From a virus (Duplodnaviria > Heunggongvirae > Uroviricota > Caudoviricetes), in IMG/VR virus record IMGVR_UViG_2541047174_000021: a DNA stretch of 6,653 nt. The stretch is one strand, 5' to 3'. The notes beneath the pieces were generated by a model. It saw only the letters and a list, made by a program, of their open reading frames with translations, was not told the DNA's origin and searched no databases. Positions 1,580 through 6,653 of the stretch are shown here, one piece after another; the stretch's first letter is position 1, and each line of letters starts with the position of its first letter. The position numbers and the translations under genes are program-made.

Positions 1580-2114
1580 ACAGGTTTGTGAGGCTCTGGA
1601 TACCTGGGTATGCCGACCAGGAATGACACAGGAGCAGGCGACGATATTAATCACGGAAGCATTCTGGGCTCTGAAAGAACGCCCGAACATCGATGTTCAA
1701 CGCGTCACGTTTAATGATGGCGAGGTTGATCAACGGGCGCTGGGCGTTAACCGGGTGAAGATATTCGAACGCTGGAAAGCTATCGACACCAGAGATAAGC
1801 GTGACAAATTCACGGCGCTGATTCCGGCAATTATGGAGGCTATCCGGATCAGCGATTTCAGATTGTATTGTGAAATTACTGACGGAAAAAGCATTACGTA
1901 CATGATCGCCGGGTTAAACAAAGAATATGGCGATGTGGTGGAGTCCGGGCTGCTTTTTGCGGATCCAGTTGTTGTGGAACGTGAGACTGACGAGCTTATA
2001 GAAAAAGCTATTGCTTTCAAGCACGCGTATCGTCAGCAATACCAATATTACTTTGCAGATAAACAAATGTCTGCCAGGGGGGCGTATGAGTATCGATGCA
2101 CTACGATGGGCTAA
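1563..2114 (+). CDS. Prophage early protein at the cII position, 183 aa (possibly YdaT-family regulator)
   Basis: Immediately follows the Cro-like gene; its ATG overlaps the dicC 3' end by 17 nt and its 3' end overlaps the next gene's start. The YdaT-family assignment is a weak recollection (IPAI-containing segment), not verified. Confidence 0.55.
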   Translation: MKITTEQVCEALDTWVCRPGMTQEQATILITEAFWALKERPNIDVQRVTFNDGEVDQRALGVNRVKIFERWKAIDTRDKRDKFTALIPAIMEAIRISDFRLYCEITDGKSITYMIAGLNKEYGDVVESGLLFADPVVVERETDELIEKAIAFKHAYRQQYQYYFADKQMSARGAYEYRCTTMG

Positions 2115-3126
2115 AAAGGTGAAAACCGGCAGTTCATCCAGTAAGTCAGTATTGACCTGGCTTGCTGATATGTGCGGTGCCGATTTGTGTGCATACCCGT
2201 CTGTATCTGCACTGGCAGAAGTAACGGAACTGAACAAAAAGACTGTGCAGGACAGCTTACGACACCTGATGGAGATTGGGTTAATTGTTGATACCGGTGA
2301 GAGAAAAGGCAGAACAAAGCAAATTGTGGTGTACCGACTTATCGGTGTAGAAGAAAGTGTTGCCGAGCCTGAATACACCCAAAAACGGGAGTCTTTAAAG
2401 GTGGGTAAAATTGGTGCTGTTAATAAAAACAGTACCGAAAATGGTTATGTTTCAGCACAAAACAGACCCAAAAACAGAACTCTTAGCTGCATGGAAAATA
2501 ACCAAAGACACCCAAATTTTCCATCAAAGACACCCAAAAACGGATCACGGAACCCAAAGGAACCCAAAGATCTAAACCCCACACATAACGCACGCGAGAG
2601 TGCTCCGACCAGTGAGCAGGAAGTTTTGTCGTTACAGGCAGCCCCCCCTGTATTCCTGTATGGCCTGAGCGAACCCATCGGAAAATTCCCGATGAGCGAT
2701 AGCTGGTATCCGTCACGGGATTTTCGACGACGGGCTGCGTTGTGGGGGATGGCTTTGCCGGAGACAGAATTTACACCTGCTGAACTTGCCGCCTTCCGGG
2801 ACTACTGGGCAGCGGAGGGGAAAGTGTTTACGCAGATTCAGTGGGAGCAGAAATTCGCCCGTCACGTAAATCACGTCAGGGCGCAGGTTAAACCAGTCAG
2901 CAAAGGGGTAAACCATGCAGCAGCACCAGGTGGCACCGCATCACGGGCAGTTCAGGAAATTCGGGCAGCACGTGAGCAGTGGGAACGTGAAAACGGATTT
3001 ATCAGCGACGGAAACGGCCTGGAAGCTGTGGGAACTCATGGGGGTGGTTTATTCGAACCGCTGGATCCAGAAGAACGGGGCCGCACCTTCGAAGCTCTGG
3101 ATTGCACAGATTGGCGCGATGACTGA
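2086..3126 (+). CDS. Phage replication initiator / replisome organiser (lambda O-like role): N-terminal HTH, iteron-encoded linker, C-terminal DnaT-like domain
   Basis: The track ORF 2011-3126 starts at a TTG; I prefer ATG 2086 (MSIDALRWAKK), which has a G-rich SD (2074-2081). C-terminal segment GKFPMSDSWYPSRDFRRRAALWGMALPETEFTPAELAAFRDYWAAEGKVFTQIQWEQKFARH resembles the E. coli DnaT C-terminal domain (recalled). Low-complexity Pro/Lys/Asn linker is encoded by the repeat array. Confidence 0.8.
   Translation: MSIDALRWAKKVKTGSSSSKSVLTWLADMCGADLCAYPSVSALAEVTELNKKTVQDSLRHLMEIGLIVDTGERKGRTKQIVVYRLIGVEESVAEPEYTQKRESLKVGKIGAVNKNSTENGYVSAQNRPKNRTLSCMENNQRHPNFPSKTPKNGSRNPKEPKDLNPTHNARESAPTSEQEVLSLQAAPPVFLYGLSEPIGKFPMSDSWYPSRDFRRRAALWGMALPETEFTPAELAAFRDYWAAEGKVFTQIQWEQKFARHVNHVRAQVKPVSKGVNHAAAPGGTASRAVQEIRAAREQWERENGFISDGNGLEAVGTHGGGLFEPLDPEERGRTFEALDCTDWRDD
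2375..2570. repeat. Iteron-like direct repeats (candidate phage origin of replication) inside the initiator gene
   Basis: Exact 14-mer CAAAGACACCCAAA at 2503-2516 and 2525-2538 (22-bp spacing). Related copies ACACCCAAAAACGG 2375-2388, AGACCCAAAAACAG 2464-2477, AACCCAAAGG 2551-2560, AACCCAAAGA 2561-2570. An AT-rich stretch lies within the array at about 2401-2462. Confidence 0.45.
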
Positions 3127-4348: not shown

Positions 4349-4509
4349 GCGGATGGTGCAGGCCTGAAATCATGATACTAACAATGAAGGTAAAATGCAT
4401 CGGCAGTCTGATTGGTCGTAGTGAGGCGGCGGTCAGGATGAAAGCCCAGGTTAAGGGAATAAGCCTGATTCTGCGGGGTGATTTTCACCAGTCAACAAAA
4501 TATCCGTAG
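4345..4509 (+). CDS. Short ORF (54 aa) translationally coupled to the preceding gene; possibly the disrupted 5' part of the following remnant
   Basis: Its ATG (4345-4347) overlaps the upstream TGA (4346-4348) in an ATGA arrangement. No recognisable family; product [24 protein letters not shown]... Confidence 0.25.
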
Positions 4510-4956
4510 CGCGATAACGGTCAAAAATTATGGCGCTGACACTTTTGTGCCACTGGAGATGACTGTACCTAAGTTCAGGGGAGAAGAACACGTCCGGTGG
4601 GATGGTCGGGCCAGATTTAAAGGGCAGGTCATGGCTCCAGCCTGTACGCTGGCAATGGAGGCTGCCTGGCGGGAAATTGATATGGGAACCACGCCACTCA
4701 GGGATTTACTGCCGGTCCAGAGAATAAATTCCTGTTACGGTTACACCACTGTGATCTTGCAAGTGCAGGAAAGTAGGTCTACACGGTAACGCGAGTGCGT
4801 GTAACTTTTGATGTCATTCCCGTAGAAACACCGGACAAATTTTCGCTGACAGGTCATGCAGAAGGTATAAATCTGCAGATTATGGACAATTACGGATATC
4901 CGGCAAGAGCCGGAAAAAGCATGCCGCCTCTAATTCTCAGTGGAAGATGGACTTGA
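4478..4956 (+). pseudogene. Fimbrial (chaperone-usher pilin) subunit-like remnant, frameshifted and 3'-truncated
   Basis: Frame 2 (4478-4789) has GRARFKGQVMAPACTLAMEAAWREIDMGTTPLRDL, matching the pilin N-terminal pattern F-x-G-x-V-x3-C...L-G-x-V (compare FimA GTVHFKGEVVNAACAV...VQLGQV, recalled), with a second Cys about 30 residues on. Frame 1 (4777-4956) continues with VTFDVIPVETPDKFSLTGHAEGINLQIMDNYG, like FimA GVQILDRTG. No in-frame signal peptide, at least one frameshift near 4775-4790, and it ends at the AT-rich boundary. Confidence 0.35.
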
Positions 4957-5015
4957 TTATACTCATTGCATTGTCAGAAATAGTTATCCATTAAAGGCTG
5001 GCTATTCCAAACAGG

Positions 5016-5043
5016 ATGTTGATTACAAAAATGTAATCAACAT
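5016..5043. promoter_or_regulatory. Perfect inverted repeat (12-bp arms, 4-bp spacer) upstream of the binding-protein gene; candidate operator
   Basis: ATGTTGATTACA (5016-5027), AAAA, TGTAATCAACAT (5032-5043), arms exactly reverse-complementary. Sits in the AT-rich region about 165 bp before ATG 5208. A perfect TATAAT is at 5070-5075. Confidence 0.3.
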
Positions 5044-5207
5044 GTAAGGTTTATACTCTTCAATATGCGTATAATTTTCCTTATTTTGTTGACTTTAAAT
5101 AACAAGCTATGCACGAGGTAAAGTCGGATAAGTTTATCTGGATGTAATATATATTATTTGTAGTGTTTATAACTTTATTTCATGATAACCAATAAAAGGA
5201 GTTTTTT

Positions 5208-5966
5208 ATGAGGAACATAATGGCAGGTTTTTTAATATTCCTGTCTTCTGCTGCTTATGCTGATATCAATCTGTATGGTCCTGGTGGCCCGCATACAGCC
5301 TTGCTTGATGCAGCCAAACTTTATGCCGAAAAAACAGGTATTATAGTGAACGTTCATTACGGCCCACAGAACAAATGGAATGAAGATGCCAAAAAAAATG
5401 CAGATATCTTGTTTGGCGCATCAGAACAATCTGCTCTGGCTATCATTCGGGACCATAAAGACAGCTTCAGTGAAAAAGATATTCAGCCTCTTTATCTGCG
5501 AAAAAGTATTTTACTGGTAAAGAAAGGTAATCCTAAAAATATCCGGAGTATTGACGACCTGACCAGACCTGGGATTGGCGTAATTGTTAATGATGGTGGT
5601 GGTACCAGTAATACATCAGGCACTGGCGTCTGGGAAGATATTGCCGGACGTAAAGGGAATATAGAAACTGTCGCCGCAATCCGAAAAAATATTATTTTAT
5701 ATGCGCCCAATAGCGGAACTGCACGTAAGGCTCTTGAGAATCAGCCTGGAGCAGATGTCTGGATAACCTGGGCTGACTGGGCAGCCAGTAATCCAGAAAT
5801 TGGTGATGTCGTGGAAATAGCGCCAGACTACGTGATATGGCGTGATATGAACATTACAGTACGTCAGGATGCAAATGATGAAACCCGTCGATTTGCAGAA
5901 TGGCTACAAACCGATGAAGCGGCGCCTGCATTCAAAAAATATGGCTGGACCAGGAAAGGCACTTGA
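5208..5966 (+). CDS. Secreted periplasmic substrate-binding protein, ModA-like (molybdate/tungstate-type fold), 252 aa, orphan
   Basis: SD AAGGAG (5195-5200) 7 nt before the ATG. Signal peptide MRNIMAGFLIFLSSAAYA, then DINLYG. Architecture parallels E. coli ModA (recalled): ADILFGASEQ versus ADLFISADQ, C-terminus AAPAFKKYGWT versus AAEIFKRYGFT. AT-rich codon usage unlike the phage module. No permease or ATPase gene nearby. Confidence 0.75.
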   Translation: MRNIMAGFLIFLSSAAYADINLYGPGGPHTALLDAAKLYAEKTGIIVNVHYGPQNKWNEDAKKNADILFGASEQSALAIIRDHKDSFSEKDIQPLYLRKSILLVKKGNPKNIRSIDDLTRPGIGVIVNDGGGTSNTSGTGVWEDIAGRKGNIETVAAIRKNIILYAPNSGTARKALENQPGADVWITWADWAASNPEIGDVVEIAPDYVIWRDMNITVRQDANDETRRFAEWLQTDEAAPAFKKYGWTRKGT

Positions 5967-5970
5967 CATC

Positions 5971-5998
5971 CTCGTCCTTCAGGACGTGGATTCTTTTT
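5971..5998 (+). terminator. Candidate intrinsic terminator after the binding-protein gene
   Basis: Imperfect hairpin CTCGTCC-TTCA-GGACGTG (5971-5988) followed by a T-rich tract, TTCTTTTT (5991-5998). Confidence 0.3.
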
Positions 5999-6085
5999 CC
6001 GGATGCCGCGCCAGCGGCATGTAGGGGCAGCTCACAAAACGGAAAAAATTGTACGCTAAGCCTCGCCAGGTGAACTGAATTCATT

Positions 6086-6109: not shown

Positions 6110-6179
6110 GCGAAAACGGTTTGCTGTAACGGCAGAGTTAAGTAGGATTGCTGCGGGTGCTTGAGGCTATCTGCCTCGG

Positions 6180-6255
6180 GCATGAACACCAACGGCAGAT
6201 AGATAAAAGCCCCACCCGACTATAAATCGAAGTGAGGCCCCTATATGCTCGTCAC
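6180..6255 (-). ncRNA. sok: Putative Sok-like antisense RNA (approximate bounds)
   Basis: By analogy with hok/sok loci, the antisense RNA covers the mok SD/start (SD GAGG 6233-6236, ATG 6245). A minus-strand TTGACC -35 candidate is at plus 6283-6288; I found no convincing -10. Ends not determinable from sequence. Confidence 0.3.
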
Positions 6256-6457
6256 ATATAGATTGCCTCTTACGGACCGAAAGGTCAAGGAGAAGCAGGC
6301 TATGAAGCAGCAAAAGGCGATGTTAATCGCCCTGATCGTCATCTGTTTAATCGTCATAGTGACGGCACTGGTAACGAGGAAAGACCTCTGCGAGGTACGA
6401 ATCCGAACCGGCCAGACGGAGGTCGCTGTCTTCACAGCTTACGAACCTGAGGAGTAA
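6245..6457 (+). CDS. mok: mok-like reading frame (in-frame upstream extension overlapping hok), 70 aa
   Basis: ATG 6245 with SD GAGG (6233-6236). Reads MLVTYRLPLTDRKVKEKQA then the Hok sequence, the same layout I recall for chromosomal MokC/MokB. The region from about 6153 closely parallels the plasmid R1 hok mRNA leader (recalled). Confidence 0.5.
   Translation: MLVTYRLPLTDRKVKEKQAMKQQKAMLIALIVICLIVIVTALVTRKDLCEVRIRTGQTEVAVFTAYEPEE
6302..6457 (+). CDS. hokD: Hok-family type I toxin (HokD/RelF-like), 51 aa membrane peptide
   Basis: MKQQKAMLIALIVICLIVIVTALVTRKDLCEVRIRTGQTEVAVFTAYEPEE: Hok family signature, near-identical to my recollection of E. coli K-12 HokD (RelF). SD AAGGAG (6287-6292). 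Confidence 0.9.
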   Translation: MKQQKAMLIALIVICLIVIVTALVTRKDLCEVRIRTGQTEVAVFTAYEPEE

Positions 6458-6525: not shown

Positions 6526-6552
6526 AACCCGCTTCGGCGGGTTTTGTTTTTT
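6526..6552 (+). terminator. Rho-independent terminator of the hok transcript
   Basis: Stem AACCCGC (6526-6532), UUCG tetraloop (6533-6536), GCGGGTT (6537-6543), then TTGTTTTTT. Confidence 0.7.
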
Positions 6553-6653
6553 CTGGTCGTTCTGGTTTACAATCCATCCGTCAGCCTGAACAACTGGCAC
6601 CTGCTGCGCCAGCAGAGAAAACAGATGGCGCACGATACCAAATTTTACAATTC

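Follow-up and report, generated by a model that had tools for sequence, protein, structure and literature searches.

paa (adfO) in a lambdoid prophage early region: a probable exported solute-binding protein of the AcfC/PEB3 family on a mobile unit of about 1 kb

Introduction

Crystal structures are available for two homologues of the protein Paa (AdfO), AcfC from Vibrio cholerae (4jb7) and PEB3 from Campylobacter jejuni (Cj0289c; 2hxw, 3fjg, 3fj7, 3fir). AcfC is a periplasmic protein. V. cholerae with an acfC deletion adheres to Caco-2 and HT-29MTX cells as before, but its chemotaxis to mucin is altered and it is distributed differently in the gut. In an ELISA, heparin sulfate, chondroitin sulfate and mucin were bound by recombinant AcfC (PMC5976639). 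PEB3 is a glycoprotein and has been considered a possible transporter of phosphate-containing compounds (PMC5424204).

For Paa itself, the setting is O-island 57 (OI-57) of EDL933, which is part of prophage CP-933O. It contains adfO (paa) and ckf, the latter now being annotated as a Hok-family toxin (PMC9729726; PMC9144400). In the literature on OI-57, z2053 is adfO and z2054 is ckf, and the pairing of the two genes has already been described (PMC8565820; PMC9144400). Mutation of adfO impairs adherence to HeLa cells and lowers the production and secretion of several proteins (PMC8565820). According to summaries, Paa contributes to attaching-and-effacing (A/E) lesions and intimate attachment (PMC11420993; PMC5378719). 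Transcription of the EDL933 gene, there termed 'acfC', rises in bovine rumen and rectum contents (PMC8524897).

paa/adfO is widely used as a virulence marker in the typing of EHEC, EPEC and ETEC, and there is an association of OI-57 with the seropathotypes of highest pathogenicity, so that the locus itself is nothing new. Publications already cover the gene, where it lies in the prophage, the hok-family gene paired with it, the protein family and crystal structures for two homologues. The literature also recognizes a mechanistic question: how can a soluble binding protein without an adjoining transporter promote adherence and colonization? Here, we analyzed a stretch of 6,653 nt from a tailed-phage genome record (the window), which carries this gene. 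A preliminary description made from the sequence had presented it as an orphan encoding a secreted, ModA-like substrate-binding protein. The gene proved to be a named marker, and its solitary state is family-wide. It is very probable that the best overall description is paa/adfO, coding for an exported solute-binding protein of the AcfC/PEB3 family that is carried as a prophage unit of about 1 kb. What is added here is the family-wide absence of adjacent ABC genes, which slightly sharpens the question concerning ligand and partner.

Identity and prophage location of the gene

The window represents a lambdoid early region, with genes for a CI-type repressor, a P22-Cro-type protein, YdaT, a replication protein with a DnaT domain, a lambda-P protein and a DUF1627 protein. 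The program-made ORF list of the window contains an ATG-to-stop ORF of 252 aa (Table 1), with an AAGGAG Shine-Dalgarno sequence that is spaced 6 nt from the ATG. Its product matches the Pfam domain SBP_bac_11 (E 5.5e-34, residues 20-247) and is identical at 252 of 252 residues to WP_001449026.1 from E. coli O157:H7 ("AcfC family adhesin Paa"). Because of this domain match and the full-length identity to an annotated paa product, the ORF is far beyond chance. It is paa (synonyms adfO and z2053), the 'porcine attaching-and-effacing associated' gene. Two short minus-strand ORFs (5232-5357 and 5492-5710) lie beneath this strongly supported plus-strand gene.

Hundreds of E. coli chromosomes contain a near-identical region, with the gene bearing the annotation 'paa: AcfC family adhesin Paa'. 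paa was found in 611 of 5426 complete E. coli genomes, the places being chromosomal in 582 cases and on plasmids in 36. The annotation 'Paa/adherence factor AdfO' is also carried by 11 deposited PPompW/Stx2a phage genomes. The element that hosts paa is the lambdoid, ompW-integrated prophage CP-933O/O-island 57 of EHEC. The Paa/AdfO protein of CP-933O is identical to that of the window, with no difference in the gene. The order of genes is also the same: lambdoid replication genes, DUF1627, a fimbrial pseudogene, paa, hokD/ckf, rem, ydfU and rusA. The ompW-integrated prophage type is likewise shared (deposited phage PPompW_EH2246; PMC9144400). In O157:H7 PV15-279, a replication gene is interrupted by IS1203, whereas the window is without an IS1203 insertion. 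At the end of the window, ~100 bases (6552-6653) do not align to the best-matching O157 genomes.

The phage replication genes lie on one side of paa and the hok/sok-nin region on the other. The Hok/Gef ORF downstream of paa and an Rfam sok match (Table 1) bear out the earlier view of prophage cargo next to a hok locus. This hok gene is the "ckf" of the OI-57 literature.

Composition and extent of the mobile unit

The composition of paa (GC 43.9%, GC3 34.8%) differs from that of the window as a whole (GC 48.2%) and from that of the phage genes, which have a GC3 of 42-65%. The intergenic region upstream of paa (4957-5207) has only 27.9% GC. The AT-rich, foreign codon usage that had been noticed before is thus a property of the gene. 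When the window was compared by blastn with an IncF plasmid from porcine ETEC (ETEC1749), the sole match had 85.9% identity and covered paa with both of its flanks (Table 1). The insert with paa is self-contained, spans about 1 kb and is also found on ETEC plasmids.

Table 1. Features of the paa locus (positions refer to the window of 6,653 nt)
Feature	Position	Strand	Basis
Transferable paa unit, ~1 kb (upstream region, gene, hairpin)	5004..6026	+	blastn against plasmid-borne paa homologue
AT-rich upstream region, presumed promoter/regulatory	5004..5207	+	TATAAT at 5070-5075, AAGGAG at 5196-5201; plasmid homology from 5004
paa ORF, 252 aa	5208..5966	+	program-made ORF list
Predicted signal peptide, residues 1-18, MRNIMAGFLIFLSSAAYA	5208..5261	+	hydrophobic core, A-Y-A before D19, no Cys
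Predicted mature Paa/AdfO, residues 19-252, with stop codon	5262..5966	+	identity to WP_001449026.1, SBP_bac_11, PDB matches, AF2 model
Terminator-like hairpin CGTCCTTCAGGACG with T-rich tail	5973..5996	+	terminator scan; starts 7 nt past the paa stop codon
sok	6155..6304		Rfam match, 103.9 bits
Hok/Gef ORF	6245..6457		Pfam HOK_GEF, 75.9 bits

The preliminary description had also proposed that paa could be a moron. A moron is unlike its flanking phage genes in composition, which applies to paa and even more so to the DNA upstream of it. It is also dispensable for the phage cycle; paa is flanked by the replication module and the hok/nin region, and the same 1-kb unit occurs on plasmids. With its AT-rich upstream DNA, the gene and a hairpin, the unit has the anatomy of a moron. 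Composition, position and the plasmid-shared unit are thus in favor of moron cargo. For a promoter of its own, only a perfect TATAAT with a poor -35 region is found. As a consensus scan gave no full sigma-70 match within 5004-5207, the promoter of paa is assigned to this segment only presumptively. The hairpin 3' of paa, at 5973-5986, is located within the segment common to the window and the ETEC plasmid copy, the homology ending at 6026, and it probably serves as a terminator. We also considered that paa might be tied to the fimbrial pseudogene upstream of it, but discarded this idea because the plasmid homology starts only at 5004.

Export

The signal peptide of Paa was read from sequence features. 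The N-terminus (MRNIMAGFLIFLSSAAYA, followed by DINLY) has one positive charge, a hydrophobic core and the cleavage motif A-Y-A. Cysteine is absent from the whole sequence; hence, there is no lipobox, and Paa is not a lipoprotein. The PDB chains of PEB3 and AcfC align with Paa from residues 11-19 onward, and low pLDDT values (53-65) in the structure model are confined to residues 1-20. Paa is thus predicted to be exported by Sec, with cleavage by signal peptidase I, as a soluble, non-lipidated protein of ~26 kDa. This agrees with the initial assignment as a secreted protein with a signal peptide.

Family, fold and signature loops

In a phmmer comparison against PDB, the closest matches to Paa were PEB3 (E 1.2e-81, Paa residues 11-248) and AcfC (E 3.5e-81, Paa residues 16-248), while sulfate-binding proteins reached only E 1e-4. 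An AF2 model computed from an alignment of 33 homologues has a pLDDT of 91.7. In a Foldseek comparison, the model superimposes on AcfC (4jb7) with a TM score of 0.96 (target-normalized), an rmsd of 1.3 Å and 52% identity, and on the PEB3 entries with TM scores of 0.94-0.96 (target-normalized), an rmsd of 1.5-1.8 Å and 52% identity. The next tier consists of ModA structures (TM 0.72-0.79 in both normalizations, rmsd about 3.5-3.8 Å, 16% identity). From sequence and model, Paa is predicted to be a two-lobed, class-II periplasmic binding protein of the AcfC/PEB3 family and not a ModA. The oxyanion-binding-type fold that had been proposed is consistent with SBP_bac_11 and with the class-II fold in the AF2/Foldseek comparison. 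The orphan status, on the other hand, had been made to depend on the lack of a clear match to a well-characterized binding protein, and AcfC (4jb7) and PEB3 (3fjg, 2hxw) provide such matches (E about 1e-81), with conserved signature loops.

These loops are G24-P-G-G-P28, G52-P-Q54, S134-N-T-S-G-T-G140 and P167-N-S-G170. A W-x-T-W-x-D-W motif is also present. In two family alignments, most positions of the loops and of the W motif are invariant or at least 90% conserved. Each of the four loops directly precedes a helix in the AF2 model. A loop just before a helix is the usual anion-binding geometry of the class-II fold. By analogy to this fold class, the four loops probably converge on one cleft. 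The Paa clade is distinguished from the rest of the family at nine positions. As eight of these are conservative (the ninth being K56 versus T), there is no sign of a changed ligand class. The signature loops are retained in a relative from Sulfitobacter, which is a non-pathogen, and the GPGGP and W-TW-DW motifs are kept in the surveyed loci (see below), including those from Synechocystis and Paracoccus.

PEB3 resembles Paa in having a conserved SNTSGTG loop and in being encoded by a solitary gene. According to the phmmer alignment, T138/S139 of PEB3 correspond to T136/S137 of Paa and are conserved; these reportedly are ligand-site residues of PEB3 (Min et al. 2009). The proteins differ in that PEB3 is N-glycosylated at a DFNVS sequon where Paa has DSFSEKD, and in that K135 of PEB3 is T133 in Paa. 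In addition, peb3 is chromosomal while paa is phage-borne. AcfC shares with Paa the signature loops, a Sec signal peptide, the location on a mobile pathogenicity element and the lack of an ABC partner.

According to the crystal entry titles, AcfC (4jb7) was obtained with D-aspartate and one PEB3 entry with L-phospholactate. Loop conservation and these homologue complexes suggest that a small anion is bound in the interlobe cleft of Paa. Candidate ligands would be phospholactate (as in PEB3) and D-aspartate (as in AcfC). Based on the literature, 3-phosphoglycerate and phosphoenolpyruvate (PEB3) or sulfated glycans (AcfC) may also be considered.

Comparison with ModA and sulfate-binding proteins

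The term 'ModA-like' holds at the level of the fold and fails at the level of the family. E. coli ModA (b0763; PDB 1wod) and Paa share the class-II fold (TM 0.72-0.78), export, a similar size and a homologous first strand-loop-helix. Paa scores far below the cut-off of the modA equivalog model TIGR01256 (18.3 versus 62.5 bits). The same applies to the other modA models (NF002920, 17.7 versus 470 bits; NF002918, 14.4 versus 288; NF007958, 11.7 versus 253).

The replacement of AAASL by GPGGPH, which had been pointed out before, is seen in an hhalign alignment that covers only the N-terminal 57 columns (the first strand-loop-helix). It places LYGPGGPHTAL of Paa opposite VFAAASLTNAM of E. coli ModA. 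Ser12 of ModA (S36 of the precursor) is aligned with G27 of Paa, and Ser39 (S63 of the precursor) with Q54. We take Ser12 and Ser39 to be oxyanion-ligand residues of E. coli ModA. Judged from this aligned stretch, the earlier suspicion that the ligand might not be molybdate is well founded, and binding of molybdate by Paa in the manner of ModA is very unlikely. The GPGGP sequence itself is a signature of the AcfC/PEB3 family rather than a peculiarity of the prophage copy.

Gene organization differs as well. In the K-12 control, modABC are contiguous, with modA being directly followed by modB and modC, while paa is solitary and has no modB/modC neighbors. Membership of Paa in ModA was rejected for these reasons: missed modA cut-offs, 16% identity, replaced serines and the lack of modBC. 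Paa as a divergent molybdate or tungstate binder of the ModA/TupA/WtpA type could draw on the fold resemblance, on a weak local similarity of both termini to ModA and on the fact that the Pfam family SBP_bac_11 includes ModA. These points are outweighed by the arguments just given, and far closer relatives have been crystallized with organic anions. We consider this reading effectively refuted.

Membership in the sulfate/thiosulfate-binding proteins (Sbp/CysP) was likewise rejected, as the curated cut-offs were missed (NF008022, 22.6 versus 288 bits; TIGR00971, 21.5 versus 155.5; NF008106, 19 versus 308). The TM scores of Paa to sulfate-binding structures are about 0.6-0.7.

Genomic context across the family

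The ORF list and the domain matches revealed no ABC permease or ATPase in the window, and none is found within ~9 kb on either side of paa in O157:H7 PV15-279 or around paa in the deposited phage PPompW_EH2246. The preliminary description had noted that no cognate ABC gene is nearby and had named adjacent transporter genes just outside the window as grounds for refuting its reading. The observation extends to these flanks, where no such genes were detected.

The same situation was encountered in the relatives. A dedicated ABC permease/ATPase is next to the gene in none of 12 annotated contexts, which are from an ETEC IncF plasmid, from plasmids of Sulfitobacter, Agrobacterium and Acinetobacter, from Edwardsiella, Enterobacter and Francisella, from a P2-like prophage of Aeromonas, from a TCP-type island of V. 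cholerae, and from Campylobacter and Helicobacter. In addition, 80 loci from 80 species were surveyed, with six-frame ORFs being probed for ABC ATPases, ABC permeases, methyl-accepting chemotaxis proteins (MCPs), TDT transporters and LysR regulators. With a flank of up to 6 kb on each side, an ABC gene is absent from 70 of the 80 loci. In the other 10, it is 3-5 kb off or convergent, and not a single locus has an ABC gene that is both co-oriented and adjacent. The solitary position is a trait of the whole AcfC/PEB3 family and not of the prophage copy. As the missing adjacent transporter is family-wide, the idea of a lost transporter is disfavored and a role independent of ABC transporters is favored. 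A neighborhood with LysR and a TDT transporter recurs around distant relatives.

Paa could still be the binding component of an ABC importer that is encoded elsewhere, for example for phosphorylated three-carbon acids as proposed for PEB3. In its fold, Paa matches the ABC-type cluster-D binding proteins, and PEB3 was crystallized with L-phospholactate, as given in the entry title. The 80 loci and the 12 annotated contexts argue against such an importer, and a gene that reaches new hosts by itself, on phages and plasmids, could not count on a specific resident transporter. We regard this possibility as very improbable.

Alternatively, Paa might be a chemotaxis co-receptor. By analogy to AcfC and AcfB, its ligand-bound form would dock on the periplasmic domain of an MCP and steer cells to mucus. 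This would fit to the altered mucin chemotaxis and gut distribution of the acfC deletion strain (PMC5976639), to the MCP gene that is directly upstream of acfC in V. cholerae ATCC 14035, and to the induction of paa in EDL933, which was discussed alongside chemotaxis genes (PMC8524897). acfC is downstream of the MCP gene acfB in the TCP island (PMC5976639), whereas paa has no MCP neighbor: no MCP gene is present in the window or in its flanks in the O157 genome and the deposited phage. In the survey, ATCC 14035 is the only locus of 80 with an adjacent MCP gene, and such a gene is ~2 kb away in one more. A co-receptor function is, in our view, quite improbable.

Possible periplasmic role and adherence

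Both the importer encoded elsewhere and the chemoreceptor partner can be seen as special cases of a more general model, in which Paa would be a ligand-binding or sensing protein of the periplasm. Acting by uptake or signaling via an unlinked partner, it would influence adherence indirectly and would not be a surface adhesin of the classical kind. We favor such a periplasmic role slightly, because the adfO mutant is pleiotropic and because the signature loops are conserved in free-living bacteria. Further points are the lack of an anchor in Paa, the periplasmic location of AcfC, which affects chemotaxis to mucin but is not required for adhesion to cells (PMC5976639), and the suggestion that PEB3 may be a transporter of phosphate-containing compounds (PMC5424204). 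The name that is used for Paa in the literature, adhesin, counts against it.

The work of Batisson from 2003 bears on this point: antibodies against Paa reportedly blocked A/E lesions. Such blocking would imply some extracellular or surface exposure of Paa, which speaks against a location solely in the periplasm.

The strongest competing view is that Paa is a genuine adhesin, at the cell surface or secreted, which would bind sulfated or phosphorylated glycoconjugates of the host in the first step of intimate attachment. It is in line with the RefSeq name 'AcfC family adhesin Paa', with the role in A/E lesions and intimate attachment given in summaries (PMC11420993; PMC5378719), with the reduced adherence of the adfO mutant to HeLa cells (PMC8565820) and with the binding of heparin sulfate, chondroitin sulfate and mucin by AcfC in ELISA (PMC5976639). 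Paa has, however, no anchor, beta-barrel, autotransporter domain or lipid attachment site. In fractionation, AcfC is found in the periplasm, and the acfC deletion strain shows unchanged adhesion to Caco-2 and HT-29MTX cells (PMC5976639). The homologues differ in this respect, as AcfC was reported to be non-essential for cell adhesion (PMC5976639) while adherence phenotypes were reported for Paa/AdfO (PMC8565820). In addition, the loops of a small-molecule pocket are kept in free-living bacteria that have no host, and the phenotype of the adfO mutant is pleiotropic (PMC8565820). An adhesin in the strict sense thus seems doubtful to us.

Returning to the indirect periplasmic role, we speculate that all members of the AcfC/PEB3 family may be ABC-independent anion binders of the periplasm, 'adhesin' being a misnomer, and that Paa detects or takes up an anionic metabolite of gut origin in its cleft, handing on the signal or the ligand to a partner that is not an ABC transporter. 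We put this forward tentatively, as a possibility that is by no means the expected outcome. If true, a phage or plasmid would confer an advantage in colonization via one gene. For such a partner, two kinds of protein come to mind: a chemoreceptor, in line with what was suggested for AcfC and AcfB, or a secondary transporter, which is hinted at by the LysR and TDT-transporter neighborhood of distant relatives.

Neighbourhood of paa in the prophage

Downstream of paa, the window carries a complete type I toxin-antitoxin locus, hok/sok, in which both components were recognized (see table). This locus is the ckf gene of the literature on O-island 57 (OI-57), according to which adfO (paa) is always accompanied by ckf (PMC8565820, PMC9144400).

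Immediately upstream of paa, and still inside the prophage, there is a fimbrial-subunit pseudogene, annotated in RefSeq as frameshifted and having an internal stop. The region common to the window and the plasmid-borne homolog of paa starts at 5004 and does not include this pseudogene. A Pfam search with its two ORF fragments gave no match. The replication gene with a DnaT domain is intact in the window; in O157:H7 strain PV15-279, an IS1203 insertion divides it.

Features in the window and in related loci
Feature	Sequence	Coordinates	Evidence
DnaT-domain replication gene	window	2011-3126	
DnaT-domain replication gene, split	L001 (PV15-279)	4975-7327	
Fimbrial-subunit pseudogene	window	4514-5047	RefSeq
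ORF fragments of the pseudogene	window	4478-4789, 4795-4956	
D-M-N-I-T (Paa residues 213-217)	window	5844-5858	
hok/sok locus	window	6155-6457	
sok	window	6155-6304	Rfam, 103.9 bits
mok/hok reading frame	window	6245-6457	
hok proper	window	6302-6457	Pfam HOK_GEF, 75.9 bits
Family member in P2-like prophage	L010 (Aeromonas sp.)	6001-6774	
Loop-deletion homolog	L004 (Agrobacterium plasmid)	4998-5759	
Loop-deletion homolog	L005 (Acinetobacter plasmid)	4977-5705	
PEB3 homolog	L013, L014 (Campylobacter sp.)	6001-6753	

Start codon and sequon of Paa

RefSeq starts paa at the first ATG (5208; 252 aa), and the deposited phage records at the second (5220; Met5, 248 aa). Because of the position of the Shine-Dalgarno sequence and the basic M-K/R-K N-terminus that is conserved in homologs, we favor 5208 over 5220.

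Paa contains D-M-N-I-T, which matches the Campylobacter N-glycosylation sequon (D/E-x-N-x-S/T). The glycosylation site of PEB3 from Campylobacter jejuni, DFNVS, is not conserved in Paa. E. coli is not known to possess the glycosylation enzyme PglB, and the Paa sequon is probably irrelevant in this host.

Family members in other genomes

An Aeromonas family member with 54% identity is cargo of a P2-like prophage, flanked by the replication gene gpA and by ogr, with portal and terminase genes adjoining. This copy is an independent capture of the AcfC/PEB3 family as a phage moron.

In Sulfitobacter/Roseobacter, Paracoccus/Falsirhodobacter, Burkholderia and Agrobacterium (genome loci L061-L064, L068-L071 and L084; plasmids L003 and L004), distant relatives (40-48% identity) are encoded next to genes for a LysR regulator and an anion transporter of the TDT family (TehA/Mae1 type). 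Three different arrangements occur, and the one in Agrobacterium is followed by a gene for malate dehydrogenase. In these loci, the binding protein may be paired with a secondary transporter.

The signature loop SNTSGTG is otherwise well conserved but is short of five residues (GAGQN-----GLWED) in the Agrobacterium and Acinetobacter plasmid homologs, and this alignment points to a possible subfamily whose pocket differs.

In two Campylobacter sp. loci, a PEB3 homolog is encoded ca 1 kb upstream of cytolethal distending toxin genes (CDtoxinA, Exo_endo_phos, CDtoxinA), with a DUF817 gene in between.
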